Positions 27,313 to 61,459 are shown, counted from the stretch's first letter. The stretch is DNA of 64,000 bases from Yuukianura sp. NJ FZ-2021 (GCA_046563655.1 CM102289.1:558001-622000), one strand, 5' to 3'. Made by a program: numbers and translations. Notes: generated from the sequence alone by a model not told the origin.

Positions 27313-35139
<7,827 letters not shown>

Positions 35140-39498: not shown

Positions 39499-39823
39499 TT
39501 AAAAGAATTTGGGTGGGAAGCATTGGTAAATATCGCATTCGTAGAGACAGCACACTTGGTCCTTATCACAAGCAAGTTCTGGAGTGTTTTGGCAGTGGTA
39601 TGGTTGGATATTATGATCTGGACAGTCAGAATCCTCGCTGTGTTCAATCGGTGGACACTCCAATGCTACAACAACCACAAATTGTTAAAATTGTCAAAGG
39701 AAAACACAATTTATAAAGTTTGTTTTAAATTTGAAATTGAAGTTAAAATTAAAATAGATGTTTACTTTCAGCCACGGTCACTAAGGCTACAATTGCTACG
39801 AGCAACATAACAAGCAACTTCAT
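39499..39823 (-). CDS. Secreted 8-Cys WAP-like peptide 1 (LECPPIEHSEDSDCPDHNIQPYHCQNTPELACDKDQVCCLYECDIYQCFPPKFF)
   Basis: Exon 1 signal peptide MKLLVMLLVAIVALVTVAE, phase-1 intron, 8-Cys exon 2, upstream TATA. Confidence 0.85.
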
Positions 39824-40398
39824 TCTGACTAAAGGCGGCAGTTAGGTTAATTTTGAAGTAAATGTTAAGGTTAACTTTAAACTTTAGCTAAGGTGAAGCA
39901 TATTTATAGGAATGCGATTCCGTAGAATTGAAAATACCTCAAGTACCACAGTTTACGTAAGCGATTGTGGCAGTTTCGAGTAATTAAAACTTGCCGCATA
40001 ACCCAATTAATGTTTTGTGGTTAGTTAACAATTAAGGGATTTTTAGATTCGTTAAGTAGCTACAAGCCGGAAATATAAATGTGTATTTTAAATTTTCAAA
40101 TTTAATTCCAAATGGGTAAATGTAGCGCTGGAGTTTCCAATTCAGAAATATTTTTCTTAATTAAAAACTTATTTTGGTTTCTTCCACTCAGGGAAATTTC
40201 TTTTTCAATATTTGTTGCAAAATGTCACAGTTTAAATAATTCTTTAGTCTGCCGGAGAAAACAACTGATTCAACTTTGTCTGTCTGTCCGTCCGTCTGTC
40301 ACGTTTTTAAATGTGAAAAATTAAAATGTGTAACTTTTTATTCGAATTCTGTTACATCCTCTCACACGAACTTTGTTATTTCTTAGGAGATGTTGGAA

Positions 40399-40723
40399 TC
40401 AAACAAATTTGTATGGGTAGCAATAGAGGTTGTCGCATTCGTTTTTGCAACACAACTGGTCAGCATCACAAGCCAGCCATGGAGTGTTGTTGCAATGGTA
40501 CGGTTGGAAATGATGGGTACACTCAGCCGGTTGACTTATGTCAATTGTTGGACACTCCAATTCTGCAAAAACCAAAAATTGTTAACAGAAAATTGGCAAA
40601 CCATAACAAAACTTGGAAAAAGTTTGTGATTTGAAATTTAAATTAAAGTTAAAATGGATGCTTACCTTGAGCAATGGCGACCAAGGCTGCAATACAGACG
40701 ATCAACCCAACAAACGACTTCAT
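40399..40723 (-). CDS. WAP-like peptide 2 (CPTIDISQPAECTHHFQPYHCNNTPWLACDADQLCCKNECDNLYCYPYKFV)
   Basis: Same two-exon structure and Cys spacing. Confidence 0.85.
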
Positions 40724-41323
40724 TTCAACTTAAAGCGGCAAATAGGATTGATGTATGTTATTATTAATGTTAATTTCAAATTCAGTTAAGTAAGCATATT
40801 TATAGGAACACATTTCCGTAAGAATTGGAAATATGTCAAGTAGTTACAGTTTAGGTAAGAGATTACGGCATTTTAGAGTAATTAAGGGTTCCCGCATATC
40901 CCAGTTAATTTTTTGTGGTTAATTAAACATGAAGGGAGTTGTAGATTTGTTAATTAGCTACAAAATATTTCCCAATCTATTTTTCAAATTTTCAAATTTT
41001 CGGCCAAATGAGTGAAAGTATATCGCCGGAGTTTCCAATTAAGAAAAATTCGAAGTATTTAAGTCGCGTCAAAGCTGCATTTGTGCTTTAAGTACAAATA
41101 AGAGGACACTCAAATTTAAACCAAAAGACACGAAAAAGTGTTTTAGAAAAGCTACACAATGATAGACCAAGGCTAACGCACAACAAATCCATATTTTGAA
41201 AAATCCACCTTTTACATCACTTTTTTAGTCTTCTAGAGAATATGTCTGTATGTCTTTCACGTTTTTAAGTTTGAAGACAAATTCAAAAGTCGGTAACTTT
41301 TTATTCACATTTTGTTACATTTG

Positions 41324-41672
41324 TTACACGTACTTTATGAAGTTCGATGCTGCTGGTCTGATTTGTGCGTTGGGGTAGCAATTAAATTGTCCACAGTCGT
41401 CTTCACAGCACAATTGGTTAGCATCACAAGCAAGTCCTGGATGGTTGTTGCAGTGGTATGGTATTAAAATCGCGTTACATATGGCACCCTTGCTTCGGTC
41501 AATCTCTGGACAACTCAATGCTACAACAACCGAAATTGTTAACAGGAAATTGTCAAATCAAAGAATTGTAAAAGTTTCACTTGAAATTTAAATTTAATTA
41601 AAGTTGATATTTACCCTCAGCCACAGCGACCAAGGCTGCAATGGCGACAAAAAATACAACAAACAACTTCAT
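41324..41672 (-). CDS. WAP-like peptide 3 (CPEIDRSKGAICNAILIPYHCNNHPGLACDANQLCCEDDCGQFNCY...)
   Basis: Same structure; ORF 41324..41518 is exon 2. Confidence 0.85.
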
Positions 41673-41750
41673 TTTTACTCCAGGCGGAAGTTGTGCTAAT
41701 GTTAGGTTTAAATGTTATTAAAACTAACTTTAAATTTTAGCTAAGTTGAA

Positions 41751-41877
41751 GCATATTTATAGGAATGCATTTCCGGAAGTTTTGAGAATATCTCAAGTAG
41801 CAACAGTTGAGGTAAGAGATTGTGGCATTTTCAATTAATTTGTAATCTGTCCCATAACACGATTAATTTTTGTGGTC
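41751..41877 (-). promoter_or_regulatory. Representative conserved promoter of the peptide array (TATA box, TTC-N-GAA site, GATA-like site, CTCAA-N10-TTGAG motif, TGYGGT site)
   Basis: The block gcatatttatagga..ttc..gaa..tatctcaagtagcaacagttgaggtaagagattgtggca..taattaa..tgtggt recurs upstream of essentially every copy. Confidence 0.7.
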
Positions 41878-42418
41878 AGTTGATGATCAAGGCAGTTTTT
41901 GATTTGTTAATTAGCTGCAAGGCTAAAATGTTTCATAATGCATTTTCTAAATTCACGTAAAAATGGGTAAAAGTAGCGCTGGAATTCCCAATTTGCAAAA
42001 ACTTTTGTTCATTAAAAACTCATTTTGGTTTGTTGCATTAAGGCAGCAAATTCTTTTCCAAATCTTGGTTAAACCCAATGTAAAAAAAAACGAAATTTAC
42101 ACAATACGTTTAAATAATTTTTTGAGGCTAACGCACGGTAAATCCATATTTTAAGAAATCCAGTGCAACATGCATCTTACATGCAAATTTTGTTGCAAAA
42201 GTCGTCGTTTGTTCAGTCACTTCTTTAGTCTTCTGAAGTCACTTTTTTTAGACTAAATATACGAGTGGTGTAGACTCATGCCTACAACACGATAAAGAAG
42301 ACTTTTGATTCGACTTTGTTCGTCCGTCTGTCGCGTGTTTAAATTTAAAAAAAAAACTGAAGTTGGTAACTTTTTATGCAAATTTTGTTACACGAACTTT
42401 GTTTTTCCTTATGAGTTT

Positions 42419-42743
42419 TTAGAAATACATGGTTTTGGCGGGGTAGCAATAGAATTTGCCGTAATCGTCTTCGCAGCACAATTCGTACTCAGCATCACAC
42501 GCAAATCGTGCATCGTTGTTGCAGTGTAATGCTTGGAAATCCTTCGTACACATAGCAGGCTGGCTTCGGTCAATCTCTGCACAACCCCATACTACAACAA
42601 CCAAAAACTGGTAACAAAATTTTCAAGAAAATTGTTTTCGAAAAACTTGAGATTTGAAAATTTTAATGTTGACGTGGATTTTTACCCTCAGCATGGGCGA
42701 CTAAGGCTGCAGTACCAGCGAGCAACGCAACAAACGACTTCAT
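42419..42743 (-). CDS. WAP-like peptide 4 (CAEIDRSQPAMCTKDFQALHCNNDARFACDAEYELCCEDDYGKFYC...; 7th Cys replaced by Tyr)
   Basis: Two-exon structure intact; only 7 Cys. Confidence 0.8.
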
Positions 42744-43242
42744 TTTGACTAAAACCGGCAGTTAACTTACGTTAGTGTAGGAGTAAATGTTAAGCTTAAC
42801 TTTGAGTTTCAGTTAAGTTGAAGCATATTTATAGGAATGCAATTCTAGAAGTTTTCAAAAGGTAAAACTTTGTGGTAGTTTCGAGTATTTAAAAAATGTC
42901 TCATGACCCAAATTATTTATTTTCTGGTTAATTAAACATAAACATGAAGGGAGTTTAAAGTCGCTACGAAGCTAAAAATTTTCTCAATTTAATGTAGATC
43001 CAAATTTAGACTAAATGTTTAGCCTCCATACCCGAAGTGTCAACGAAAAAAATATTTCGGGTTTCTCTGTCAGTAAATATTTATGTATTTGCAAATTGAT
43101 TCAACCGTGTCTGTCTGTCTGGCTGTCTATCTCGTTTTAAATTTGAAATTCAAATTCACAAATCGGCATCTTTTTATTCAAGATTTTTTGTTTACTTTTG
43201 CTATATTGTTTGTTAATGAACTTTGTTACTTCGTAGGCGTTC

Positions 43243-43580
43243 TTAGTCAAAAAGTGTGGGGAGTATGGGGAGACAGTTAAATTTGCCGCAGTTGTCTTCG
43301 CAACAAATTTCGTACTCCTCATCACAAGCAAGTTCTGGAAGGTTGTTGCAGTGATAAGGTTGCAAATTCATCGTGCATATAGCAGGCTTGCTTCGATCAA
43401 TCGATGGACACCCCAATCCTACAGCAATAAAATATTGTTAACTCGAAATTGTCAAAAATGAAAAAAAAATTGGAAAAAGTTTATGATTTAAAGTTTAAGT
43501 TAAAGTTAAAATGAATTTTTACCATCAGCAACGGCGACCATGGCTGCAATACCAACGAGCAACACAACAAACAACTTCAT
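43243..43580 (-). CDS. WAP-like peptide 5 (CPSIDRSKPAICTMNLQPYHCNNLPELACDEEYEICCEDNCGKFNCLPILPTLFD)
   Basis: Two-exon structure, 8 Cys. Confidence 0.85.
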
Positions 43581-44310
43581 TTTGATTAAAGGCGACAGTT
43601 AGGTTAATGTTAGCGTTAAATGTTAAGTGATCTTTAAATTAACTTAAGGTGAAGCATATTTATAGGAATACATTCTGGAAGAATTGAGAATATCTCAAGT
43701 AGCAACGGCTGGGTTAAGAGATTGTGGCAGTTTCGAGTAATTAAAAGTTGCCGCAACTTTTTTGTGGTTAATTAAAGATGAAAGGAGTTTTATATTCGTT
43801 AATTAATTACAAAGATGAAAACATATTTTTAAATTTCCAAAGTTACCTCAAATGGGTAAAAGTAACTTTTCGGTTTTCAGTTAAAAGTAACTTTTCGGTT
43901 TTCAGTTTAGAAAGATAAATGTTCATTAGGAACAATATGAACAATAAAAGGTAGATTTCAGTAGAATTTTGGTGTGAAATTCAAAAATGGAACCGACGCT
44001 GGATTTTGTATTTTCCGTAGAAAGTTGACTTTAAAATTTAAACTAAAAGATACTAAAAAGGTATTTAAAAAAAGTTACATATTGAAAACAGATATGCAAC
44101 GGCAAACGTACAATAAAACCATATTTTAAAAAATATCACGCGACATGCAACTTGTATTTGTTGCAAAAGTTTCCAGGAAATTTAGTCATTTTTAGTTTTC
44201 TGGAGAAGACTATTAATTCGACATTGTCTGTCTGTCACGATTTCAAATCCAAACACAAATGAAAATTTGTAACTTTATTCCAATTTTGTTACATTTTTTT
44301 ACATTGTTGG

Positions 44311-44656
44311 TTACAAATGTACCAATAATGGTTCAGGAACTGGTATGGCGCCGAAGCAATGGAATTTGCCACATCTGTCTTCGCAACACGATTGGGAAGG
44401 ATGACAAGCAGCTCGAGGATCGTTGTTGCAGTGGACTGGTTGAAAATCCAACGTACATGCACCAGGCTGGCTTCGGTCAATCTCGGGACACCATGCTACA
44501 ACAAACAGAAATTGTTAATAGAAAATTGTCAAAAGAAAAGGAAAATTAGACAAAGTTTGTCATTTGAAATTTAAATTTAAGTTAAAGTTGATGTTTACCT
44601 TGAGCAACGACGACCAAAGCTGAAACAGCGACGAGCAACACAACAAATGACTTCAT
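44311..44656 (-). CDS. WAP-like peptide 6 (CPEIDRSQPGACTLDFQPVHCNNDPRAACHPSQSCCEDRCGKFHCF...)
   Basis: Two-exon structure, 8 Cys. Confidence 0.85.
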
Positions 44657-45148
44657 CTTGACTGAGAAGGCGGTTAGGTTAAAGTTGGATTAAATTTTAA
44701 GCTTAACTTTAAGTTCGCAGCGGTGAGAATATTTATAGGAGTAGATTTCCGAAAGGTTTGAGAGTATCTCAAGTAGCAACAGTTGAGGTAAGAGATTGTA
44801 CCAGTTTCAAGTAATTAAAAGCCGCTGCACAAACGGATAGTTTTTTGTGGTTGGTTAAAGATGAAGGGAGTTTTAGATTTGTTAATTAGCTGCAAGACTA
44901 AAATATTTCCCAATGCATTTTTCAAATTCTTAACTTAAAATCAAATGGGTAACATCATTTCAAATTGAACTTCTCTATTTGTATTTGAATACCACTCAAT
45001 TTTCAACTCAATTTTTCAAAATTCATTGGCATTAAAAAAATGCATCTGAACTCGGAACCGGTTTTAGTCCTACGGCCAAATATAGTGTAAATTGTTTTAG
45101 ATTTATGTAATGATAGATTTCTTGTTCTTGTACGATATGTAAGTGAAA

Positions 45149-48104
45149 TTACCTTGCCCTACGATTGGTTAACTCAATCGTATTTGATCTGTCTATTGTT
45201 GTACGACTACATTTGGTTAAAATCCACGCACCAACCTCTTTTAGTAGAAGTTTCAATTCTTTTCGAAATTTGGTGCCAAGAATGGAGTAGAGGATGAAAT
45301 TGAGAGCAGAGTTGAGTAGTATGGGGAGAGAGACAATTGTTGCGGTAACTTCAGGCTCCACTCCCTTCAGAATAAAGTTGAGTTCCAGTGCAGCAGCCAA
45401 GGAGTTAAGCAGGATGAACACAAACACAACTGAAAGCAACATTCGAGTCAGGGAAGAGTCAGAAGCAGTACTGTGGGTGGTTGCAGTAAGGCGCCGCTCT
45501 CTCGCTGCTTTGGTTACCTGAAACATAACATAAACAATTCATTTTGCAACTTAGTTTTGTGTTTTTTATGCATTTGGTTTTAAATTTACCGCTCGAATGA
45601 TGAGTATGTTGAGTGTGACGATTGTAAAAAAGGGAACCAAGTAGATGCATAGATACCAGAGCAGTTGCTGGTAAATGATTTGGTAGAATGGAAATCTGTG
45701 CAACTGACACGGGAAATAATTGCTCCACTCGGGAGACGATGCTTCATAGCTCCATTTTGCAAACTCCAACCATCGCGGAAAATTTAGAAATGTTGAAAAT
45801 CCAAATGCCAGCAGTGTGTAACGTCGTGCTTTGCGAATTGTAAAAACCGATGACACTTGCAGTGGCTTCGAAATTGCAACATAACGCTCCAAAGTAACCA
45901 AAACCGTCATGTAGACCGACGCTGTGTACACTAGAACGGAAGTAAATTCTCATGCATTACACATCCACGTACATATAGGACGTACACCCGCATACAAACA
46001 CATATTCAATCCAAAATTTTAAATTTAATAAAATAAATAACTTTTTACATCAAATTTAAGTCTTATGCTTACTTGTCTTGCTGATTGGATAAGCCACGTA
46101 TCCGTTCCATTTCGAGCGCAGCATTTTTTCATGAAACAAGTTACTGAATTCCTCCGCCGTGACAAATGACGTAATCAAGTACATGGAATCGCAGCATGTG
46201 AGCCCCACAAGAAGTATGCTTGTTGAACTGCGCATTGCTTTGCGCATGAGCACGACGAAGCTCAAGCAGTTGAAAAGTAGTCCAATACCACAAATACAGT
46301 TAACAAATGTCATGTACGAGTTGTAAATTTGTGACAAGAGCGTTGAAGTTATTTCCTCTTCCGAGAATCCATGTAATTTCAAATGACGTGTAATCCTGTA
46401 CTCTTTTCTGACCCAGGGGTAATAAGCGTGGTCCAGAAGACGGTAACCAACTGTGCGATTTATTGTAAACATACGTGCCTGCTCTCCTTCAAAAGTGTTT
46501 TCGGGAAATGTTGCATTTAAAGTTGTTTTGATGAGCGCTTTAAATTGACTTTTGACTTTGAATCCAGGGTCATACATTGGCATTTTGATAGTCACAAACG
46601 TTGGAGCTAGTTGATTTACAAATGCCAAGAGCAGCCTTTGCGACAAAACATCCTCCATATTCATCATAACTCTCTCTACACGTGGAAAGATACTGCCAAT
46701 GTTGTCTAAAATTGCGTCATCAATTGTGCAGCTCATGAATGCTAAGTGTGTTATGTTTGACAACGGCGGCACTGGTAACATTTCGAATCTAACGTAAACA
46801 AACTGCAACACTAAGCTTTCTATTGTCCTTAATCCAAGTGACCCCAGGTCAACTGCAGGACACTCTTCACCCAAATACTGACAGTTGATGACCAAACGTT
46901 CCAATTCATGATTTTCCAAAATATCAACTAGTTTAGTATTCCACAAATACGAATTGTGTAGTTCAAGTCGTCGAAATTCTTTGGATAAATTGAAAACGCT
47001 AAGGTCAATGTCGCCAAACATCACAAGAATCTCCTGCAGTTTGGTGAACTGTTGTCGCAAGTGAGAAGGAGCCGAGTTGTAGCGGAAACTCAGCGATCCT
47101 GTACTAATTTCAACGAGTGAATTGGTTGGAAGATGTGCGACGTCAATTGCTTCAGGAACTTTGCTATGAATTACTATATGTGTAAGGGCAATAGAGGACG
47201 TTATAAGTTGTGATATGGTACCACCGATGAGGTCATTATCATACAAGGTCAAGCTTGTGACCGAGGTCAAGTTCACTGACTTCACATCAATTGTGCAGTC
47301 GCTCGCGCCGAATCCTTTAACGTTGATGAACGTGGTGAACAACATTCTCCAAATGGCGACATCTCTGATGCGTTTAACTTTTAAATCAGAACCCCTTATG
47401 CTAATATAAGCTCCATCACCAGAATTTATGAGAACATCTAAATTTTGGAACTTCGGAATTCCTCCGCTCCCTATTGTTCCATTTGTAAGAAAACTAATAA
47501 TGGATTCCAGGATTTCCCTGGTGTTCAAAACATAGGGCGGATAGTAAGATTGATCAAAGTGAATTTCGTTTAGACTTGGAAGATGAATTTTGCCCAAATT
47601 CGTTTCATGTTCCCAGACCCATTCTACATTGCTGAACTTCAAACTTGCCAAACAGGGAAAATTGGTTAAGAATTTAGCAAATATGGAGCTTCTCACGCGC
47701 AACAATTTTAATTCCAGTTCTGTTAGTGCACACTGTCCATCGACAGTAGAAATTTTTTCTACTCCATGGAAGTCCTGCAGCAATGTTTCGTTTCCAGTGA
47801 CTGTGATTTTGGTCCTATAAAAAGAATTGCAGAACATGTATTATATGTATTGTTCAACTACATATTGTATTTACCTGTGTATAAATAATTACATACCATT
47901 TATTTTTACATTAACATCTCTTATATTAACATTTTAAATTCCCGCTTAGCCAGAGGTTTAATGGTGCGAACAATGTCGCTTCCGTCTTTACATAGCCAAA
48001 AAAGCATTTTTAAATTACCCATATCTACTTCGGGTTTGGATATACGTTTCAGCCTTGGCTTCAGACGTAAATAAGAACACTAGAAAACTTAGTAACAAAT
48101 GCAT
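45149..48104 (-). CDS. Signal peptide + LRR-like ectodomain + FMRFamide-receptor-like GPCR, copy 2 (apparently intact)
   Basis: Exons 48104-48019 (MHLLLSFLVFLFTSEAKA), 47814-46073, 45930-45590, 45517-45149, all phase-compatible; YTASVYMTVLVTLERYVAI and NSALNFILY motifs. Confidence 0.85.
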
Positions 48105-48932
48105 AACGCGGAAATTTCAATGATGACCTTGATTTTTTGAAAATGTTGATTTCTCTCCACACCCTTCCCTTTTCTGACGGCAGAACAGGAAAGTACAGGT
48201 CTTAAATTAATCTTCAACCAACCAACTTAATCATAAGGTGTCAAACATTTTTAAAATTAAACAAAAAATGTGAGACTTCCCTAGCTAATTAACTATTACG
48301 TAATGAAGGACAATAATTTAGGACGAGGAAAAATTGATAGCTTAAATGATTATTTTGGGCCATCGATTTTTTTCCAAAAAAGGAAACCATTAACTTTACA
48401 GTTTTTTTTTCATACATATCCCCAACAAAATAGAGGTTTTCCTCAATTTCTGTCATAAATTTTCACTTTTCATTTCATTTCAACGTTCTCCAAAAAATTT
48501 CACTTTGAACGACCAAAAATGAAATCTTCTATGTCTCTGCGGTACTCACGTAATCTTATAAATTAAATACTCTATGTGACACAGATTAAACGCAGGAAGT
48601 TGAACACTAAAATTTAAACTAAAAGAAACGAAAAAAGTTATCTAACAAAAGTTATACAATTAATTATATAAATGATGGAACAAAGGCTAACGCGCAATAA
48701 ATTCATATTTTGAGAAATCCCGCAAAAAACGCCACTTGTATTTATATTTTGTTGTAAAAGTGCTTGTTTTATTTAGTCACTCATTTACTTTTCTGGAGAA
48801 GACTAATAATTCGACTTTGTCTGTCTGTTTTTCACGCCTTTAAATTTGAAAACTAATTCAAAAGTTGGTAACTTTTTATTCGAGCTTTGTTACATTGTTT
48901 GTTACACGAAATTTGCTATTTCTTGTGAGTTT

Positions 48933-49262
48933 TTAGTCCAAAAGTGGTATGGGGATGCAGTAGTATTTGCCGCAGTTGTTCCGGCAGCACATTTCGCGTT
49001 CAGTGTCACAAGCAAATCGTGGATCGTTGTTGCAGTGTAATGGTTGGAACTCCCTCGTACACGCAACAGGCTCACTTAGGTCAACCGGTGGACAACCCAA
49101 TGCTACAAAAACAAAAATTGTTAACAGTAAATGGACAAAGAAGAAGAAAATTTTGAAAAAGTTTGTCTTTTGAAATTTATCTTAAAGTAAAAGTTGATCT
49201 TTACCGTCAGCAAAGGCGACTAATGCTGCAATACCGACGAGCAACACAACGAACGACTTCAT
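48933..49262 (-). CDS. WAP-like peptide 7 (CPPVDLSEPVACTREFQPLHCNNDPRFACDTEREMCCRNNCGKYYCIPIPLLD)
   Basis: Two-exon structure, 8 Cys. Confidence 0.85.
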
Positions 49263-49814
49263 TTTTACTAAAGATGGCAGTTAATGTTAAGTTTAAATGT
49301 TAAAGTTAGCTTTAAATTTAAACTAAGTTGAAGCATATTTATAGTAATGGATTCCAGGAAGAATTGAGAGTATCTCAAGTAGCAACTGTTGAGGTAAGAG
49401 ATTGTGGCAGCAGTTTTAATTAATTAAAAGCTGTCGCATAACGCGATTAATTTTTGTGGTTGGTTAAAAATGAGGTGAGTTTTAAATTCTTTAATTAGCC
49501 AATACATTGTTCAAATTGTCAAATTTAAGCCAAAATTGTTAAAAGTAGTGCTGGAGTTAACAATTTAGAATTATCATAGAATTATCTTGAAAATTTTTTT
49601 TTCAAAGCAAAATGTGAAAAATACATCGGGAAATATTTCATCTCTGTAGCTAAATATCGGGTTATGTGGCAACTTTTAATTACTTGAACCTGCCACAATC
49701 TCTTACCTCAACTGTTGCTACTATAGATACTCCCAGAACTTCCGCAAATCCATTCCTATAAATATGCTTACATAACTAATGTTTAAATCATCCTAACTGC
49801 CGCCTTGAGTCAAA

Positions 49815-50145
49815 ATGAAGTCGTTTGTTGTGTTACTCGTCGCTATTGCAGCCATGGTCGCTGTTGCTGAAGGTAAAGATCCATGTTAATTTTAAGTTAA
49901 ATTTCAAATGACTAAATTTTTTTCCCAATTTTTCTGTTCTTTTGACAATTTCTGAGTAATAATTTTTGGTTGCTGCAGCATTGGAGTGTCCTGAGATTGA
50001 TCGAAGCCAGCCTTTTGCGTGTACGTATGAAATACCATTCGGCTGCGACAACACTCCAGAACTTGCTTGTGATGCTGACCAATTGTGCTGTCCAGACATA
50101 TGCTTTAAACACTATTGCTACCCCGCCAAAACAGTTTGGTACTGA
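49815..50145 (+). CDS. WAP-like peptide 8, inverted (CPEIDRSQPFACTYEIPFGCDNTPELACDADQLCCPDICFKHYCYPAKTVWY)
   Basis: MKSFVVLLVAIAAMVAVAE|gtaaag..gcag|; TATA at ~49757. Confidence 0.85.
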
Positions 50146-50619: not shown

Positions 50620-51289
50620 ATGAAGTCGTTTGTTGTGTTGCTCGTCGCTATTGCAGCCATGGTTAGGGGTCGCAAATTCGAAGCATTTTTGAAATTCGAA
50701 TTTCGAATTCTAAAAAAAGGCCTCGAATATTCGAATTTCGAATTTAAAATTCGAATTTCGACTTTGAAACCTCAATTATAAGCGGAACGCCAGACATCGA
50801 AATAGCATACTAAGCAATACCATTTTCAATTACCGTAGTATTGCACGTCTCGATAAATCGTTTTAGAGGACGTGGTAAACAATTTATACATAAATTCTTT
50901 AAGTTTGTTGTGAAAATCAATATTTGCCCTAATTTTTTGGTCAGATTCGAATTCGCGGCTTTTAAAACTCGAATTTTGAATTTCTAAAAGAGAGCCGAAT
51001 ATTCGAATTCAAATTCGAATCCAAATTCGAATTTGCGACCCCTAGCCATGGTCGCTGTTGCTGAAGGTAAACATTAACGTTAACTGTAAGCTAAATGTCA
51101 AATCACATTTTTTAATCCATTTTGGTTGTTTTAGCATTGGAGTGTCCACCGCATGACCCAAGCATAACCATGTGTACTTTGATGTTACAATTAACCCACT
51201 GCAACAACACTCCAAAACTTGCTTGTGATGCTGACCAATTGTGCTGCGCTGACGAATGCCGCAGATACCACTGCTACCCACCAAAATAG
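50620..51289 (+). pseudogene. WAP-like peptide 9, inverted; signal-peptide exon interrupted by a hAT MITE (exon 2 CPPHDPSITMCTLMLQLTHCNNTPKLAC...)
   Basis: Insertion at 50664-51044 inside the AAMV codons; exon 2 intact. Confidence 0.8.
50664..51044. mobile_element. hAT-like MITE (ttcgaa-rich subterminal repeats)
   Basis: TIR taggggtcgcaaattcga / tcgaatttgcgaccccta; perfect 8-bp TSD gccatggt. Confidence 0.9.
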
Positions 51290-51821
51290 TTCGAGACTAA
51301 AAACTCCCAAGATATAACAAAGTTCGTGTAACAAAATATGGTTAAAAAGTTACCAACTTTTTAATTTGTGTTGAAATTGAAAAAGGAGGTTGAATAAACC
51401 AAGGTTCGTATTGCAATGAAATAGTTTCTTTTTAACAAGTTAGACAATAAAGTTTTTCTAAAAATCTAGCTCCCAATCCCATTTAGCTAGCCTAGGTAAA
51501 ACGCTGCCGCTGAAATTAAAAATAAAAGACACGAGAAACAGTTATTTAAAAAAGTTTCATAATGATAGACTAAGGCTAACGCATAATAAATCTACATTTT
51601 AAAAAATCCATGCAACTTGTATTCAAATTTTGTTTCAAAAGTTCTCACTGTATTTCGTCACTTTTTTAGTCTTCTGGAAAAGACTATTGCTTCAACCTTG
51701 TCTGTCTGCCCGTCACGTTTTCAAATTTGAAAACAAATTAAAATTTAACTTTTTATTCTAAACTTGTTGCTTTTTTTTTACATAGATTGTTATACGAACT
51801 TTATTAATTTATGTGTAGTTT

Positions 51822-52166
51822 TTAATCCCAGACTGGCAAGGCGCCAATGCAATTGAATTTGCCGCAGGCGTCTTTGCAGCACTTTTGGAAGTAAGGATCA
51901 CAAGCAAGTCGTTGGTCGTTGTTGCAGTGGATTGGTTGGAAATCCCTCGTGCAATGAGCAGGCTTGCTTAGGTCAATCTCGGGACATTCAAAGGCTACAA
52001 GAACCAAAATTGGTAATAAAAAATTGTCAGAAGAGAAGAAAAATTTAAAAAGTTTTTTGTTTAAAAAGTGAATTGAAATTTAAATTGAAAGTTAAAGTGG
52101 ATCTTTACCTCCTGCCACGGCGATCAATACTGCAATCCCAACGAGCAACACCACAAACGACTTCAT
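51822..52166 (-). CDS. WAP-like peptide 10 (CPEIDLSKPAHCTRDFQPIHCNNDQRLACDPYFQKCCKDACGKFNCIGALPVWD)
   Basis: Two-exon structure, 8 Cys. Confidence 0.85.
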
Positions 52167-52519
52167 TCTGACTAAGGAGGCAGTTAGGTTAGTGTTGGAG
52201 TAAATATTACGGTTAACTTTAAATTTTAGCTAAACTGAAGCATATTTATAGGAATGCATTCTAGGAAGTTTTGAGCGTATCTCAAGTAGCAACAGTTGAG
52301 GTAAGAGATTGTGGCAGTTTCAATTAATTAAAACCTGCCGCATAGCTCGATAACTTTTTGTCGTTAGTTAAAGATGCAGGGAGTTTTATATATAAGGCTG
52401 AAATATTTCCGAATACATGTTTCAATTGGCCAAATAGCGTAAAAGCAGCGCTGAGATTCCCAGTTTAGTAAGATTTTTCTTTAATTAGGATCAGAATCAG
52501 GTGAAAATCGAGATCCCTG

Positions 52520-52666
52520 TATTAGCTGAGCGCTAATTCTGAGGATTAGGGAGTGGGATAAAGAGGAAACTGATGACAAGCCAGAAAAAATACAAAAACT
52601 GAGTGGGACTCGAACCCATGCCTTCATTCAGAGTACATACTCTCTAAACCATTGAGCTATCGATAG
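52520..52666 (-). mobile_element. tRNA-derived SINE-like element or pseudo-tRNA (second copy ~54733-54877)
   Basis: Minus strand has A box TAGCTCAATGG and B box GGTTCGAGTCC at tRNA spacing; the acceptor stem does not pair. Confidence 0.6.
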
Positions 52667-52965
52667 AACTGATCACTTCTAGGCTGCCTTAATGGAAGGA
52701 AACCGGTGCATGTGATGAGATTGTGGCAATACTGCAAAAATTGCAAAATTGAAGGGGAAAATGAAACTTTTATGTTGCTAACTAGCCTATATCTATTCAA
52801 CTTATTTAAAAAAAATACATGTTACTGATACACCATGACTGACGCCCAGTAAATTCATTTTTTGAAAAATCCGATGAAACGCAAATTGTTATTCATTTTT
52901 TTTATTTTGACTATTAATTCGACTGTGTGTGTCTGTCTGAGACGTTGTTGAATTTGAAGACAAAT

Positions 52966-53326
52966 TCACAAGTAGGCGATCATGTCCCCTATCTTCACGT
53001 CCCGTGGGTTTCTGTTGGTGTAGCAATGGAATTTGCCGCAGACGTCTTCGCAGCACTTGTACCCAGCATGACAAGCAAGTTGTGGAGTGTTGTTGCAGTG
53101 CGTAACTTGCAAATCCGCCGTACACATAACAGGCTTGCTTCGGTCAATCGGTGGACATTCTAATGCTACAAGAATCAAAAATTGTCAATAGGAAATTGGC
53201 AAAGGAGAACAAAATTTAGAAAAAGTTTGTCATTTGAAATTTAACTTAAAGTGAAAGTGGATGTTTACCCTCAGCAAAGGCGAACAAGGCTGCAATTGCG
53301 ACAAGCAACACAGCAAACGACTTCAT
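52966..53326 (-). CDS. WAP-like peptide 11 (CPPIDRSKPVMCTADLQVTHCNNTPQLACHAGYKCCEDVCGKFHCY...)
   Basis: Two-exon structure, 8 Cys. Confidence 0.85.
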
Positions 53327-53999
53327 TTTGACTCAAGGCAGAAGTTAAGTTAATTTGGAGTAACTGTTAAGGTTAACTTTAAATTTTAGCTAAACTGAAG
53401 CATATTTATAGGAATGCATTCCCGGAAGAATTGAGAATATCTCAAGTAGCAACAGTTGAGGTAAGAGATTGTAGCAGTTTCAATTAATTAAAAGCTGCCG
53501 CATAACCCGATTAACCGTTTGTGGGTGGTTAAAGATGAATGAAGTTTTAGGTTAGTTAATTAGCTACAAAGGTTAGGTTAGGAATATTTCCCAGTGTATT
53601 TTTCAAATTAAATTTAAGTAAAACTGGGCGTAAAAGTAACGCTGGAGTTTCCAATTTACAAATGCTAATTAAGAATTCATTTTGATTTCTTGCAATCAAA
53701 AAAAAATTAACCTGAAAGCCACTTAAAAAAAGTTAAAAGGCTACACGCATCAATTCATATTTTGAAGAATCCCGTGCAACATGCATGTTGTACTCTTGTA
53801 TTCAAATTTCGTTGCAAGAGTACCCGTTTGTTCAATTACTTTTTTCAGTCGGAAGATGCATGCCTACAACATTCTGGCTGGAGAAGACTATTGATTCGAT
53901 TTTGTCTGTCTGTCTGTTACTCACGTTTTTAAATTTGAACACAAATTCAAAAGTTGGTCACGTTTTATTCGAATTTTGTTAGAAACTAATGGTTTCTAA

Positions 54000-54355
54000 T
54001 TAAATGAAATTTAAAGGATTGGTGAGAGAGAATTGATCTCCAAATTGGTAATAGCACTTAAATTTGCCGCAGTTATCTTCGCAGCACTTTTGGAAAGGCG
54101 GACAAGCATATTCTGGATCGTTGTTGCAGTGGCGTGGTTGGAAATCCTTCGTGCATGCAACGGGCTTGCTTCGGTCAATCGGTGGGCATCCCGAAACTGC
54201 AAGACCAGAATGTGTTAAGAGAAAATTGTCAAAAGAGAAAAAACTTGGAAAAAGATTGTCATTTGAAATTTAAATTAAAAGTAAAGCGGATGTTTACCTT
54301 GAGCAACGACGACCATGGCAGCAACAGCCACGAGCAACACAACAAATGACTTCAT
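54000..54355 (-). CDS. WAP-like peptide 12 (CPPIDRSKPVACTKDFQPRHCNNDPEYACPPFQKCCEDNCGKFKCYY...)
   Basis: Two-exon structure, 8 Cys. Confidence 0.85.
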
Positions 54356-54732
54356 TTTGACAAAACTTGACCAAGAGTTTAACTAAACACAGTTAATTTA
54401 ATGTTGGAGTAAATGTTAAGGTTAACATTAAATTTTAATTAAGTTGAAGCTTATTTATAGGAATGCAGTTCCGGAAGTTCTGGGAGTATCTCAAGTAGCA
54501 ACAGTTGAGGTAAGAGATTGTAGCAGTTTCAATTAATTAAAAGCTGCCGCATACCTTGATACCTTTTTGTGGTTAGTCAGAGATGTAGGGAGTTTTTAGA
54601 TACAAGGCTAAAACTATTTCTGAATACTTTTTCAAATTGCCAAATAGCGTAAAAGTAGCGCTGAGATTCCCAATTTAGTAAGATTTTTCTTAATAAGGAT
54701 CTACTGTACTCAGAATTTGGTGAAAACACTCT

Positions 54733-54877
54733 ATTAGCTGAGCGCTAATTATGAGTTCTGGGGAGTGGGATAAAAAGGAAACGGAGGACAAGCCAGAAAA
54801 AATACAAGAACTGAGTGGGACTCGAACCCATACCCCTTCATTCTGGGTTGATACTCTAACCATTGAGCTATCGATAG
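54733..54877 (-). mobile_element. tRNA-derived SINE-like element, copy 2 (co-duplicated with the array unit)
   Basis: Same A/B boxes and flanks as 52520-52666. Confidence 0.6.
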
Positions 54878-55157
54878 CTATCAATAGAACTGATGTGCAT
54901 GTGATGGGAGTGATTCAATACTACAAGAATTTCAAAATTGAAGGAAAAAATTGAAACTTTTATGTTGCTAACTGTCCTATATTTATTCAACTTATTTAAA
55001 GAAATTACATGTTACTGATAGACATTATCTGACGCCCAGTAAAATCATATTTTGAAAAATCCAATAAAACACGCAACTTTTATTCAAATTTTGTTATTTA
55101 GACTAATAATTCGACTGTGTGTGTCTGTCTGTCACGTTGTTGAATTTGAAGACAAAT

Positions 55158-55521
55158 TCAAGCGAAGGCGATCTTCCCTTTAGGTACCTCCCCTATCAAG
55201 GGCTTTCTGTTGGTGTAGCAATGGAATTTGCCGCACGCGTCTTCGCAACACTTCTGGAACTCAAGACAAGCAAATCGTGGATCGTTGTTGCAGTGGAGTG
55301 GTTGCAAATTCTCCGTACACGGGATAGCTTTGCTTCGGTCAATCGGTGGACACTCTAATGCTACAACAATTAAAAATTGTCAATAGGAAATTGGCAAAGG
55401 AGAACAAAATTTAGAAAAAGTCTGTCATTTGAAATTTAAGTTGAAGTTAAAGGGGATGTTTACCCTCAGCAAAGGCGAACATTGCTGCAATAGCGACGAG
55501 CAACACAACAAACGACTTCAT
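55158..55521 (-). CDS. WAP-like peptide 13 (CPPIDRSKAIPCTENLQPLHCNNDPRFACLEFQKCCEDACGKFHCY...)
   Basis: Two-exon structure, 8 Cys. Confidence 0.85.
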
Positions 55522-56294
55522 TTTGACTCAAGGCAGAAGTTAAGTTTAGTGTTGGAGGAACTGTTAAGGTTAACTTTAAATTTTAGTTAAGTTGAAGCAT
55601 ATTTATAGAAATGCAGTTCCGGAAGTTTTGGGAGTATCTCAAGTAGCAACAGTTGAGGTAAGAGATTGTGGCTCTTGGCCTAACATAGTTGTTTTAACTT
55701 AAAGGTGGCCGCATTACTCGATTAATTTTTGTGGTTGGTTAAAATGAAGAGAGCTTTAGATTTGTTAATAAACTACAAAGCTGAAATACTTTCCAATGTT
55801 TTTTCCCAAATTTAAATCGAAAAGAGTAAAAGTAGGGCTGGGGTGCATAATTTACAATGATTTTTGTAAATTAAAAACTCATTTTGGTTTTTTGCAGTGA
55901 GAGAAAAAAGTGGTGCCTTACGTAGAAAGTTGACACCAAGATTAAAACTTAAAGCACGAACAAAAAAAGTTATTTAAAAAAGTTACATGATAATGATAAA
56001 CCATAATTCTAATGCACAATACATCCAGATTTTGAAAAATCTCGCGCCACATACAAATTGTTATTCAACTTTTGTTGCAAAAGTTAGCAGTTTGGTAATT
56101 TTTTAGACTCATGCCTACAACATGCCGGAGAAGACTATTGATTCGACTTTAGTCTTTCTGTCTGTCTGTCCGTTTATCACGTTTTTAAATTTGAAAATTC
56201 AAATTCGGAAGTCTGTAACTTTTTAATCAAATTTGTTCATTTTGTTACACGAACTGCGTTATTCCTTTGTAGTTTTTAGTCCCAAACTGCCGGC

Positions 56295-56598
56295 TTATGG
56301 ATAGCAATAGAATTTGCCGCAGTTGTTTCGGCAGCACAATTCGGATTCAGCATCACAAGCAAATCGTGGATCATTGTTGCAGTGGACCGGTTGGAAATCC
56401 GCCGTACAAAGAGTATGCTGACTTCGGTCAATTGGTGGACACTCCAATGCTAAAACAACCAAAAAATAGTTAGGAAATTCTCAAAAAAAAAAGTTAGAAA
56501 AAGTTTGTGAATTGAAATTGAAATGGAATTGGATCTTCACCTTGAGCAACGGCAACCAACGCTGCAATGCCTACGAGAAACACAACAAACGACTTCAT
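56295..56598 (-). CDS. WAP-like peptide 14 (CPPIDRSQHTLCTADFQPVHCNNDPRFACDAESELCCRNNCGKFYCYP)
   Basis: Two-exon structure, 8 Cys. Confidence 0.85.
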
Positions 56599-57370
56599 TT
56601 TTACAAAAAACGGCAGTTAGGTTAATGTTGTCTTGTTAAAGTTGACTTTAAATTTCAGTTAAGTTGAAGCATATTTATAGGAATGCACTTCTGTAAGATT
56701 TAAAACTGTTGTCAACTAGCAACAGTTGGGGTAAGACTTTGTGGCATTTTCAAGTTAATTAAAAACCGTTCCATGACCCCCAATTAATTCTTCGTGGTTA
56801 ACTAAAGCATGAACACGCAGGGAATTTTACATTCAAAGCTAAAATATTCCTCAATTCATTTGCCAAATTTCCAAATTCACGTCAAATGGGTAAAAGAACT
56901 TCCTAATTTAAATTTTTGTTGATTAGTACAAATGTCAAAAATATTTTAGTCTATATATCAGTAATGACAATAAAAAAAACGTTTTGGGTTTCTCTTTCAA
57001 TAAATATTTATTTGGAATCCTCAGTTAAGTAAAATATTTAGACAGTTTTTAGGAATTGTATTTTTTTTCAATAATTCGAGCGTCTTTGGTACATATTTTT
57101 GACAACCCTGTTAATTATGAACAATAAAAGTTAATAGCTAATAGCTAAAGTACAACAAATCCAAATTTGCAAAATCCCGCTGAAGAGGCAACTTTTATTA
57201 AAACTTTTTCTAGCTTCTGGAAGAGACTATTAACTCGACTCTGTCTTTCTGTCTGTCTGTCTGTCACTTTTTGAAATTTTAACCAAAATTCACAAATTAG
57301 TAGCTTTATTCAAGTTTTTTTTACATTTGTTAGATTGCTTGTTAAAGAAGTTTGATATTTCTGAGGCGTT

Positions 57371-57405
57371 TTTAGTCAAAAAGTGTGGGGAGTATGGGGA
57401 GACAC
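57371..57405 (-). pseudogene. 3' remnant of a peptide-5 duplicate at a deletion junction
   Basis: ttagtcaaaaagtgtggggagtatggggagaca is identical to 43243-43275, then jumps to sequence similar to ~44870. Confidence 0.65.
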
Positions 57406-58143
57406 GGAACGGAGTTTTAGATTTGTAAATTAGCTATTAGACTAAAATATTTACCAATGCAGATTTCAAGTTCTTAAATTATAAGTAAAATGGGTAATGA
57501 TCATTTCACAATTGAGATTCTGTATTGGAAGTATTTGGGAATCTCGCTCAATTTTTTTTAAATTCAATGGCATTCTAAAAATACATCATTTGAACTCAAT
57601 TTTTTAAATTGGAACCTCTTAAAGTTACAATATCTCAGTTGAATTTTTGTTTGAAAATCAAAATGCCGACGTACAAAAGTTACATTTCAAATGAAGTTTT
57701 CGTAACATTGAACTATTTTAGGTTAAAAAACGACCAAAATTTTTTCTCTGTTACTCACGTAGCGTTATAAATTAAATACTTTATGACGTACAGAAGTCGC
57801 AAACAAAATAAAATTAAAGGCAGAAAGTTGAACACTAAAATTTAAACTAAAAGAAACAAAAAAAGTTATTTAAAAAAAGTTATTTAAATGATGGAATGAT
57901 GGCAGACGCACAATAAATTCATGTTTTGAAAAATCCCACACACAACGCGACTTGTATTCATATTTTGTTGCAAAAAGTCCATGTCTTAGTTAGTCACTCA
58001 TTTAGTTTTGTGGAGAGGACTAATAATTCGACTTTATCTGTCTGTTTGTCACGCCTTTAAAATTTGAAAACCAATTCAAAAATTGGTAACTTTTTATTCG
58101 AGCTTTGTTACATTGTTTGTTACACGAACTTTGCTATTTCTTG

Positions 58144-58485
58144 TTAGTTTTTTAGTCCAAAAGTGGTATGGGGATGCAGTAGTATTTGCCGCAGTTGTCT
58201 TCGGCAGCACATTTCGCGTTCAGTATCACAAGCAAATCGTGGATCGTTGTTGCAGTGTAATGGTTGGAACTCCCTCGTACACGGAATAGGCTCGCTTAGG
58301 TCAACCGGTGGACAACCCAATGCTACAAAAACCAAAAAGTTGTTAACAGTAAATGGACAAAGAAGAAGAAAATTTTGAAAAAAGTTTGTCTTTTGAAATT
58401 TATCTTAAAGTAAAAGTTGATCTTTACCGTCAGCAAAGGCGACCAATGCTGCAATACCGACGAGTAACACAACGAACGACTTCAT
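58144..58485 (-). pseudogene. WAP-like peptide 15 (duplicate of peptide 7) with a +1 frameshift after CC
   Basis: ...EMCC CGA AGA CAA; the last two Cys are out of frame. Confidence 0.75.
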
Positions 58486-58742
58486 GTTGACTAAAGGTGG
58501 CAGTTGGGCTAATGTTAAGTTTAAATGTTAAAGTTAACTTTAAATTTCAGTTAAGTTGAAGCATATTTATAGGACTGCATTGCAGTAAGAATTGAGAGTA
58601 CCTCAAGTAGCAACAACTGAGGTAAGACTTTGTGGCAGCAGTTTTAATCAACTAAAAGCTGCGGCATAACGCCATTAATTTTTGTGGTTGGTTAAAGATG
58701 AAGGGAGATTCTTTAATTAGCCAACGCATTTTTCAAATGGTG

Positions 58743-59693
58743 AAAGGGCAACGTAGTTCGCTTATGGGCGACAGCGGACCCGTACGATTTGGCTGAAAAT
58801 TTAACCAGTTGTTCTCGAGACCTATAGGAACAACTTTTGTACAGGGCTCAGACGGGGCATCAAACGGTTTGACCTCCAGAGGTCACCAAAGGTCAACTGG
58901 TCATCCTATAACAACCCCCTTAAGTAAGGTGTCGTTGGAAAGCTCTTCACCTGCTGGTTCAGAAAATGTATGGGTATGTATACTTTGGTCCAGGCGTTTA
59001 GCTGTAAGGAGTCACTGAAGGTCAACTATGGAAACTGCTAAAAGTAGATTTCGGATAGGACTTTCGCGACGGCAAAAGGAAATTGGACAAGAACAACGGT
59101 TCTAGGCCTCTAGATTCCCCAAGAACACGGAAATGGTTGCAGAAACTAACTTTTTAAAACAATATGCCTCGTTTAAGTCCAAGCAGTAGAAAAGAAGCAG
59201 ATTCCGTTTTCCGTCGCGAAAGTCCTATCTGAAATCTACTTTTAGCAGTTTTCGCCTGGCTCGGTATCTCATCAGCTGTTTGCCGTAGAACAAAATTCAA
59301 GAGGGAAAAGTTGCCTATTCTTTTGAGTGGAACAACTTTTGTATAAGTCATTTTGTCGGTTGTCATGAAACGATTTTCACTTTTTGGTACTTTGCAACTT
59401 TTTCCATAGTTGACCTTCAGTGACCCCTTACAGCTAAACGCCTGGACCAAAGTATACATACCCATACATTTTCTGAACCAGCAGGTCAAGAGCTTTCCAA
59501 CAACACCTTACTTAAGCGGAGTTGTTATAGGATGACCAGTTGACCTTTGGTGACCTCTGGAGGTCAAACCGTTTGAGGCCCCGTCTGAGCCTTGTACAAA
59601 AGTTGTTCCTATAGGTCTCGAGAACAACTGGTTAAATTTTCAGCCAAATCGTACGGGTCCGCTGTCGCCCATAAGCGAACTACGTTGCCCTTT
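58743..59693. mobile_element. Palindromic foldback/MITE family A copy 2 (opposite orientation, deletion in one arm)
   Basis: aaagggcaacgtagttcgc...gcgaactacgttgcccttt; spacer is the reverse complement of that in 9741-10848. Confidence 0.85.
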
Positions 59694-60055
59694 TATTAAT
59701 TTATGTTGGATTAAACGTTAATGTTAACTTTAAATTGCAGTTGAGTGGAGGCAGAGGACAAGCCAGATAACCAATAGCTATCGATGTGCATTTGATGAGA
59801 GTGATTCAATACTGCAAGAATTGCAAAATTGAAGATTGAAGGGGAAAATGAAACTTTTATGTTGCTAACTATCCTATATATATATTCTACTTATTTTGAA
59901 AAATTATATGCTACTGATAGACCGTCGCTGACGCCCATTAAATTCATGTTTTGAAAAATCCAATGAAACACGCAACTTTTATTCAATTTTGTCATTTAGG
60001 CTATTCATTCGACTGTGTGTGTCTGTCTGTCACGTTCTTGAATTTGAAGAAAAAT

Positions 60056-60396
60056 TCAAACCCACTTCGCTGTCAAGTCGCTTATGGTGGTGTGGCAATA
60101 GAATTTGCCACATTTGTCTTTGCAACACGTTTGGAAAGGATGACAAGCCAATCCTGGATCGTTGTTGCAGTGAAGTGGTTGAATATCAAACGTACATCCA
60201 ACAGGCTGGCTTCGGTCAATCTCTGGCACTCAAATGCTACAAGAATCACAAATTATTAACAGAAAATTGTCAAACGGAAGAAAAATTAAAAAACGTTTGT
60301 CATTTGAAATTTAAATTTAAGTTGGAGTGGACGTTTACCTTGAGTAACGGCCACCATGGCTGCAAACGCGACGAGCAACACAACAAATGACTTCAT
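60056..60396 (-). pseudogene. WAP-like peptide 16 with a -1 frameshift after Cys1 (corrected: CPEIDRSQPVGCTFDIQPLHCNNDPGLACHPFQTCCKDKCGKFYC...)
   Basis: GAG TGC CAG AGA versus paralog TGT CCx GAG ATT; could be a sequencing error. Confidence 0.7.
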
Positions 60397-61103
60397 TTTG
60401 ACTACGGAGGCGGTTAGGTTAACGTTGGATTAAATTTTAAGCTTAACTTTAAGTTCGCAGAGGTGAGCATATTTATATGAATGCATTTCCGGAAGTTTTG
60501 AGCGTATCTCAAGTAGCAACAGTTGAGGTAAAAGATTGTAGCATAGTTTCAAGTAATTAAAAGTTGGCGCATCACCTGATACTGTTTTGCGGTTTGTTAA
60601 AAATGCAGGAAGCTACCGAATAACCCGTTAATTTTTTGAGTTTGGTTTAAAGATGCAGAGAGTTTTACATTAGCTAATTAGCTACAAAGATGAAGTATTT
60701 CCCAATGTATTTTTCAAATTACCAAATTTAAGTCAAAATTGTTGTAAAAGATAGCGCTGGAGTTACTAATTTACTAATGCTAATTAAGAATTTATTTTGA
60801 TTTCTCTCCATTCAGAGAAAAAATTTAAACTGAAAACAACTTAAAAAAAGTTCAATGATACACCAAAGGCTATCGCATAATCAATCCATATCTTGAAGAA
60901 TCCCGTGCAAAATGCATGTTGTATTCAAATTTAGTTGCAAGAGTACACGTTTGTTCTATTACTTTTTTAAGTCTGAAGATGCATGCCTACAACATGCTGG
61001 AGAGGACTATTGATTCGATTTTGTCTGTCTGTCTGTTTGTCACGTTTTTAAATTTGAACACAAATTCAAAAGGTGGTAACGTTTTATTCGACTTTTGTTA
61101 GAA

Positions 61104-61459
61104 TTAAATGAAATTTAATGGATTGGTGAGAGAGAATTGATTTCCAAATTGGTAATAGCACTTGAATTTGCCGCAGTTATCTTCGCAGCACTTTTGGAAA
61201 GGCGGACAAGCATATTCTGGATCGTTGTTGCAGTGGCGTGGTTGGAAATCCATCGTGCATGCAACGGGCTGGCTTCGGTCAATCGGTGGGCATCCCGAAA
61301 CTGCAAAACCAGAATGTGTTAAGAGAAAATTGTCAAAAGAGAAAAAACTTGGAAAAAGATTGTCATTTGAAATTTAAATTAAAAGTAAAGCGGATGTTTA
61401 CCTTAAGCCACGACGACCATGGCTGCAACCGCGACGAGCAACACGACAAACGACTTCAT
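61104..61459 (-). pseudogene. WAP-like peptide 17 (duplicate of peptide 12; CAA>TAA stop at the end of exon 1; loop CTMDFQP)
   Basis: ccttaagcc at ~61401-61409 versus ccttgagca in peptide 12. Confidence 0.75.

Follow-up and report, generated by a model that had tools for sequence, protein, structure and literature searches.

We describe here a tandem array of 17 copies of one small two-exon gene, located at 39499-61459 of a 64,000-nucleotide stretch of DNA from the springtail Yuukianura sp. NJ FZ-2021 (GCA_046563655.1 CM102289.1:558001-622000). The whole 64-kb stretch is referred to below as the window, and all positions are counted from its first letter. The copies code for short secreted peptides built around a pattern of eight cysteines, and a small set of their codons evolves under diversifying selection. 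The explanation that we favour, with a probability of about one in two, is that the array represents a lineage-specific family of secreted peptides that resemble whey acidic protein (WAP) domains and that act as serine-protease inhibitors with a diversified loop.

Different searches of the window led to the same set of genes. A regular expression for the full eight-cysteine pattern, applied to the six-frame translation of the whole window, gave 14 matches, all of them inside 39520-61292. A profile of the peptide core retrieved 17 open reading frames (ORFs) with E values of 1e-27 to 2.4e-21; the next-best match (E 0.033) was the second frame of a frameshifted copy, c15, and the remainder lay at E >= 0.83. 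A promoter model recovered the identical 17 units, as well as two short fragments (62021-61964 and 59753-59701). An earlier note on this DNA had proposed 17 two-exon genes with a phase-1 intron and an eight-cysteine second exon, and the regular expression, the profile, the promoter model and our gene models all confirm this organisation. Fifteen copies, numbered c1 to c17 by position, lie on the minus strand, and c8 and c9 are inverted.

Gene structure, copy number and lesions can be read directly in the DNA. In all 17 units a TATA box (TATAAATA) is found 57-104 nt upstream of the ATG, and in 16 of them AATAAA or ATTAAA follows within 110 nt downstream of the stop. Exon 1, of 58 nt, codes for a hydrophobic signal peptide and ends in phase 1; the splice donor is G/GT in 16 copies and A/GT in c1, the acceptor is YAG, and the GT-AG phase-1 intron measures 91-114 nt in 16 copies. 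Exon 2 carries the pattern C-x10-C-x8-C-x7-C-x5/6-CC-x3-C-x4-C followed by a short variable tail, with spacing exceptions between C1 and C2 (x9 in c9) and between C2 and C3 (x7 in c8, x9 in c1). The mature peptides comprise 50-66 residues, begin one or two residues ahead of Cys1, and in 11 of 15 cases have an isoelectric point (pI) of 4.2-5.8, with net charges as low as -9.

Thirteen reading frames are open, including that of c4, although it lacks Cys7, and four copies are disabled, namely c9 by a transposon, c15 by a +1 frameshift, c16 by a -1 frameshift and c17 by a nonsense codon. The full eight-cysteine pattern is intact in 14 of the 17 copies, the exceptions being c4 (Cys7 to Tyr) and the frameshifted c15 and c16. 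Thus, the count of 13 intact, four disabled and two inverted copies given previously holds as a count of open, disabled and inverted genes, but c4 is open without being intact. The second residue after Cys2 (C2+2, called X below) reads H/D, H, A, K, M, L, R, Y, L, R, A, K, E, A, R, F, M from c1 to c17, in agreement with the order given in the earlier note for c2-c17; in c1 it is D or H, according to where the extra loop residue is placed.

Flanking elements are shared as well. A (GACA)n-type microsatellite lies about 80-130 nt past the stop, at a position conserved in 14 of 17 units, and a block of about 45 nt immediately 5' of the TATA box is conserved in most of them. The palindromic TTCCGGAA ahead of the TATA box is not taken as a regulatory site, because it is exact in only four of the 17 promoters.

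Diversifying selection on the array is real and strongly supported by codon site models. Model M0 gave an omega (ratio of non-synonymous to synonymous rates) of 0.74. For all 17 copies, the comparison of M1a and M2a yielded a likelihood-ratio test (LRT) statistic of 54.3 (p 1.7e-12), and M2a assigned 32% of the sites to a class with omega 0.07, 57% to a neutral class and 10.7% to a class with omega 5.0. Posterior probabilities above 0.95 were obtained at columns 4, 12, 16, 21 and 28; the selected sites C1+2, C2-1, C2+2 (X), C3-2 and C4-3 were identical in three M2a fits, each with a posterior of at least 0.95. Comparable LRT values were found with the 13 open-frame copies only (41.3, p 1e-9) and with a tree built from non-coding DNA only (57.0). 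We also simulated 14 data sets under M1a; treated with the same fixed-branch procedure, all of them gave an LRT of at most 0.94, versus an observed 51.2. The analyses thus bear out the suggestion that selection diversifies the peptides at X, which falls within an omega class of about 5. They do not bear out its companion, that X is the lone variable residue of a conserved scaffold, since X is one of five selected sites and, of the 50 columns of the core, only 10 never vary.

The site-specific excess of amino-acid change can also be seen in simple counts. Six sister pairs differ by 69 non-synonymous versus 18 synonymous codon differences, and X differs in five of the six, including c12/c17, where the whole core differs at two residues only; these contrasts are independent of the deep tree and agree with the site models. 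The position before Cys2 carries nine different residues among the 17 copies. A per-site binomial test on parsimony counts gave 18 non-synonymous versus 0 synonymous changes at X (p 0.056), and the likelihood site models were adopted because this test is too weak. Mean p-distances were 0.23 for the upstream region, 0.23 for the intron and 0.20 for the signal exon. Pooled pN/pS values (non-synonymous over synonymous differences per site) were 0.44 for the signal exon, 0.70 for all codons of the mature core and 0.93 for its non-Cys codons, for which pN (0.32) is higher than the intron p-distance of 0.23; pS, at 0.38, is also higher than the intron value. Cysteine codons show synonymous changes only, save for the Cys7 to Tyr change in c4.

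If the array were simply decaying, the divergence of the peptides would reflect relaxed constraint and not adaptation. The four disabled copies among 17, the missing cysteine of c4 and a mean omega near 1 over the non-Cys codons, as expressed by the pooled ratio of 0.93, are what such decay would produce. This explanation was already disfavoured, and we regard it as extremely unlikely: M2a outperforms the nearly neutral M1a with an LRT of 54 and an omega of 5, about 32% of the sites are strongly constrained (omega 0.07), and conservation across all copies extends to the cysteines, to several residues of the scaffold, to the promoters and to the splice sites.

With regard to the nature of the domain, PF00095 (WAP) is the sole Pfam family matched by most members, with 10 of 14 ORF translations and 9 of 15 trimmed cores. 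The best score is 19.6 bits (E 0.0011), the best E value is 0.0006 in the scan of trimmed cores, and the alignments cover profile positions 4-39 of 41. The WAP order of cysteines, C..C..C..C..CC..C..C with its central CC doublet, is present. Classical WAP domains have the loops C3-x5-C4 and C4-x5-C5 and the disulfide map C1-C6, C2-C7, C3-C5 and C4-C8; in the array, the C4-C5 spacing is x5 or x6. Single-sequence phmmer searches of the PDB brought up nawaprin (E 0.72) and elafin (E 0.89 and 1.0), and the ten best named ESM-Atlas clusters were all WAP (score 0.85), which we use as a lead only.

Two AlphaFold2 (AF2) models were compared to known structures. Model 1, of c12, has a predicted local distance difference test score (pLDDT) of 74.9 and a disordered tail, and model 2, of the c13 core, has a pLDDT of 88.9; both are confident in the domain itself and display a beta-hairpin that spans the CC...C...C segment. 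In an exhaustive structural comparison with 48,161 PDB representatives, each model reached Z >= 2 with only two of them, half of SLPI and elafin. The SLPI half was matched with Z scores of 2.9 and 2.8 (root-mean-square deviations of 3.2 and 3.1 over 42 and 38 aligned residues), and elafin with Z scores of 2.6 and 2.5. These results hint at a WAP fold, and the best available, if weakly supported, description of the domain is a WAP-type four-disulfide core with longer loops. We call it WAP-like, not a certified member of the family, because it is too diverged to pass the curated threshold. The resemblance to WAP that was pointed out before thus stands insofar as WAP is the only family recovered by any method, but all matches are weak or below threshold.

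Several points weigh against the proposal of WAP-like inhibitors as a whole. The Pfam gathering score for WAP (20.8 bits) was reached by none of the 14 ORF translations and 15 cores, and the profile went unmatched in four of the former and six of the latter. The C3-C4 spacing is x7 in all copies, versus x5 in classical WAP domains. Family profiles gave zero matches in the PDB at E <= 10. The structural Z scores are low (2.5-2.9); Foldseek ranked the SLPI half first for model 1 with an E value of 2.2, which is not significant, and listed no WAP chain for model 2. On the side of selection, the Goldman-Yang codon model was run in our own Python implementation, with naive empirical Bayes and a fixed topology. 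Recombination and gene conversion can inflate site-model tests, and gene conversion or mosaic duplication is evident in the array: taken together, the upstream region and exon 1 of c12 and c17 show 34 differences over 210 sites, versus a single one over the 101 sites of the intron (Fisher p 1.2e-5). Toxins, antimicrobial peptides and reproductive proteins would, moreover, also be expected to show positive selection in their loops. Lastly, the top single-sequence PDB matches by E value are neither nawaprin nor elafin but scorpion beta-KTx-like peptides (24-27 residues, E 0.018-0.34).

The alternative raised by these scorpion matches is that the peptides would be toxin-like and would modulate ion channels, or further targets other than proteases; their cystine-dense scaffold would then be only superficially WAP-like. 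A very weak scorpion-toxin Pfam match in two of 15 members (E 6.1) points the same way. However, the beta-KTx matches are confined to the surroundings of a single short motif and leave the eight cysteines unaligned, whereas full-length structural matches were to SLPI and elafin only. No springtail is known to be venomous, and we judge a toxin-like role to be very unlikely.

The loop that follows Cys2 has a Thr in 15 of 17 copies, then X, then D, E or N at X+1 (14 of 17) and F, L or I at X+2 (17 of 17). Such a pattern (variable-Cys-Thr-variable-acidic-aromatic) resembles by eye the reactive loop of Kazal inhibitors, and the combination of a fixed scaffold with hypervariable contact residues is a classical observation in Kazal domains, as in ovomucoid third domains. 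Kazal domains have six cysteines, whereas the array peptides have eight and a CC doublet, and the six-cysteine Kazal pattern is absent from them. In addition, Pfam Kazal models (PF00050/PF07648, corresponding to MEROPS I1) matched 0 of 14 and 0 of 15 members at E <= 10, so that the family match looked for did not materialise, and a 21-residue loop query against the PDB gave no matches. In the HMMER alignment to elafin, where loop lengths differ, the conserved Thr stands opposite Ala24 and X opposite Met25. We take the scissile bond of elafin to be Ala24-Met25; if this is right, X corresponds to P1' in the WAP register and the Thr to P1. Homology fixes Cys2 if the domain is WAP. The earlier idea of a Kazal-like loop with X as its P1 residue thus keeps its residue pattern, but the elafin alignment would move X to P1', and X as P1 is an unproven assignment.

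In both registers X and C2-1 fall where WAP inhibitors have their primary binding loop, and we favour an inhibitory function for this reason. Protease inhibitors are what the peptides most likely are, at about even odds. The array would then code for small secreted peptides that fold like a WAP four-disulfide core with longer loops and that act through tight-binding (standard-mechanism) inhibition of serine proteases. Their targets may be microbial or fungal enzymes of the soil, or the protease cascades of the animal itself. Positive selection would keep the exposed Cys2 loop (C2-1, X and C3-2) and two further positions diverse, each paralogue thereby offering a distinct binding surface. The array grows by duplication of single units of about 0.5-1 kb and loses copies through frameshift, nonsense and transposon insertion, and gene conversion partially homogenises it.

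A bolder version, which we put forward tentatively and regard as doubtful, would see in the peptides a WAP-type scaffold that has acquired a reactive loop (Cys-Thr-P1-acidic-aromatic) in the style of Kazal or Bowman-Birk inhibitors. X would be the true P1, and the array would form a germline library of specificities (K/R, L/M/F/Y, A, E and H at P1) directed against the proteases that soil fungi and bacteria secrete. The range of trypsin, chymotrypsin, elastase and Glu-protease specificities put forward in the earlier note is likewise hypothetical. It would amount to a convergent mix of two inhibitor families in an early-branching hexapod, with no detectable relatives elsewhere.

The peptides could also be defence effectors that do not inhibit proteases and that act directly on microbes, in the manner of waprins or crustins, or as opsonins. 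Among the crustins, WAP-domain peptides have been described that are antibacterial or opsonic but lack inhibitory activity, according to the relevant parts of PMC9680087. Nawaprin is among the weak PDB matches, and tandem expansion combined with positive selection suits immune effectors. In contrast, 11 of the 15 peptides are acidic and reach a charge of -9, unlike cationic membrane-active peptides; the pI values, mostly 4.2-5.8, argue against a classical cationic antimicrobial peptide. The selected sites also cluster around Cys2, where the elafin binding loop aligns. We therefore hold effectors of this kind to be an unlikely alternative to protease inhibitors, albeit one with some weight.

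Among known systems, the closest analogue of the array is provided by the trappins. In pig, cow and armadillo, trappin/elafin genes (WAP, MEROPS I17) form multigene families whose exon for the WAP domain outpaces introns and flanks; dn/ds values are 1.0-1.9, the pig paralogues are under positive selection, and synonymous sites, too, evolve faster than non-coding DNA (PMC2831891, in the sections on these genes). Trappins and array thus have in common, as far as those sections go, recent paralogues, a secreted WAP or WAP-like domain and synonymous sites that are faster than non-coding DNA. They differ in that trappins have three exons and, at the N-terminus, a domain that is a substrate of transglutaminase, whereas the array genes encode a bare domain in two exons, with x10 between C1 and C2, x7 between C3 and C4, 17 copies and a sub-threshold Pfam WAP match.

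The nearest arthropod architecture is that of the crustacean single-WAP-domain (SWD) proteins, or type III crustins, which consist of a signal peptide and one WAP domain; following the definition in the corresponding part of PMC9680087, our gene models, likewise from a pancrustacean, have this architecture, provided that the domain is WAP. Some SWD proteins inhibit subtilisin, trypsin and proteinase K, according to the same portion of that source (PMC9680087). SWD proteins often carry a Pro/Arg-rich N-terminal stretch and are antibacterial, whereas the array peptides start near Cys1 and are mostly acidic. The array further resembles the mammalian WFDC locus, which includes SLPI and elafin, in being a cluster of small WAP or WAP-like genes, and these two proteins are the only structural matches to our models. 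In WFDC genes the signal peptide has an exon of its own, each WAP domain is encoded by one exon, and the introns are in phase 1. They are, however, vertebrate genes with no detectable profile-level sequence homology to the array, whose members have a Thr after Cys2 and then the variable X.

Searches for relatives were carried out in large collections. A word-indexed search of 5.8 billion clustered proteins returned 13 candidates, none at E <= 0.01. A full HMMER scan of 1.84 billion representative proteins found no homologue and gave two weak, unrelated matches only; both are long repeat proteins that align to profile positions 33-51 only and have no WAP domain, and they were rejected. Neither scan detected a sequence relationship to described SWD proteins or crustins. 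Two pattern matches in metagenome contigs were not confirmed, and Rfam had no matches in the window. A literature search found no description of the family. A homology-based survey of antimicrobial peptide genes in Collembola carries no mention of WAP or crustin in the text covered by a term search (PMC10051947), and the only paper found to combine springtails with 'whey acidic' lists, in its cadmium-response panel, a Folsomia candida expressed sequence tag labelled 'whey acidic protein' (PMC3060125). The family is lineage-specific, rapidly diversifying and previously undescribed.

Rapidly evolving tandem families of inhibitors or defence peptides are a well-known theme, encountered here in an under-studied lineage. 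If the peptides are inhibitors, the array offers one scaffold in 13 open-frame variants whose differences are concentrated at five positions, and hence a compact natural experiment on the way in which loop residues determine protease specificity. Little is known of the immune repertoire of springtails, to which the array would also add a family of defence genes. Very large protein collections either lack short two-exon genes of this kind or do not allow them to be detected, and other families shaped by arms races may likewise go under-reported in the genomes of invertebrates.

A gene for a rhodopsin-family G-protein-coupled receptor (GPCR) is located inside the array, on the minus strand between c6 and c7 (45149-47840; three ORF pieces, 7tm_1 E 1.7e-11, Srw E 5e-05). 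A paralogous GPCR gene is found at 6055-8802 on the minus strand (Srw E 1.6e-05), and both code for an N-terminal ectodomain of 500-600 residues in one long exon. The presence of such a receptor with a large ectodomain within the array, and of its paralogue elsewhere in the window, would suit reproductive or signalling ligands (spermatophore, seminal or pheromone-like) whose diversity would stem from sexual conflict or from the co-evolution of ligand and receptor. Strong site-specific positive selection would suit them too, and mammalian WFDC clusters have reproductive roles, as stated in part of PMC11665854. It is by position alone that the GPCR is tied to the peptides, and we consider a reproductive or signalling role quite unlikely.

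The history of the array fits the birth-and-death evolution proposed earlier, because three of the four pseudogenes are sisters of open-frame genes; single-unit duplicates and disabled copies complete the picture. The closest units are c7/c15 (951 bp, 89.5% identity), c12/c17 (891 bp, 86.6%) and c6/c16 (517 bp, 85.3%), and the most similar units are single-unit duplicates.

The open copies are as follows, all on the minus strand except c8. The most divergent is c1 (39499-39823), with one additional residue in the C2-C3 loop and H (or D) at X. It is followed by c2 (40399-40723, X = H), by c3 (41324-41672, X = A), in which Asn replaces the conserved Thr, and by c4 (42419-42743, X = K), whose Cys7 to Tyr change lies in codon 42463-42461. 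After c5 (43243-43580, X = M) come c6 (44311-44656, X = L) and c7 (48933-49262, X = R), closest to the pseudogenes c16 and c15, respectively. The inverted c8 (49815-50145, plus strand, X = Y) has one residue less in the C2-C3 loop. The next three are c10 (51822-52166, X = R), c11 (52966-53326, X = A), whose sister is c13, and c12 (54000-54355), from which structure model 1 was made and in which X is the K of codon 54149-54147. The core of c13 (55158-55521, X = E) was the source of model 2, and c14 (56295-56598, X = A) is the last open copy.

Three of the disabled copies are on the minus strand and carry small lesions: c15 (58144-58485, X = R) has an extra base at 58199, ahead of Cys7; c16 (60056-60396, X = F) has a 1-nt deletion in the Cys1 codon, at about 60227; and c17 (61104-61459, X = M) has a TAA at 61405-61403, which is the final full codon of its signal exon, and a shortened 5' leader. 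The fourth, c9 (50620-51289, plus strand, X = L), is inverted, and its exon 1 is interrupted by a non-autonomous terminal inverted repeat (TIR) element of 380 nt (50664-51043), which is flanked by a 9-nt target duplication (AGCCATGGT) and has internal repeats rich in TTCGAA.

DNA contigs of four runs were placed on 41601-61600; they are short, and many cross-map between paralogues at the 85% threshold used. In runs X1 and X3, contigs connect 50654 with 51044 and lack the c9 element, the shorter side being only 27 letters long. Because two runs join the flanks in this way, the c9 insertion may be polymorphic, on what is weak evidence. One X3 contig is devoid of the extra base of c15, but it is possibly a cross-mapped c7 copy.

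Between c15 and c16, the plus strand at 58797-59018 and the minus strand at 59508-59639 carry one and the same ORF piece. Summed over the contigs, depth in this region is very high in each of the four runs, and we therefore take it to be, in all likelihood, a mobile element of high copy number whose ends are inverted.

Elsewhere, the window is AT-rich (GC 0.30-0.40) and eukaryotic. Exons of an L-type voltage-gated calcium-channel alpha-1 gene lie at 30115-33566 on the plus strand and have their best identity to springtail proteins; for one of these exons the identity is 72% with Folsomia candida, 67% with Orchesella cincta and 60-63% with other arthropods. The array is adjoined by an uninterrupted ORF of 961 residues with hydrophobic segments (35295-38180, minus strand), for which the label of ionotropic receptor was dropped, as it has no Pfam match at E <= 0.001. 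At 15931-16622 (plus) and 18085-18712 (minus), long multi-frame ORFs with a repeated peptide-like unit (FSKAFS.., FQKHF..) form two inverted blocks, whose appearance is that of a satellite or of an inverted duplication and not of genes. Finally, an ORF fragment at 20305-20637 on the minus strand contains a protein kinase domain (Pkinase E 4.1e-08) and is presumably one exon of a kinase gene.

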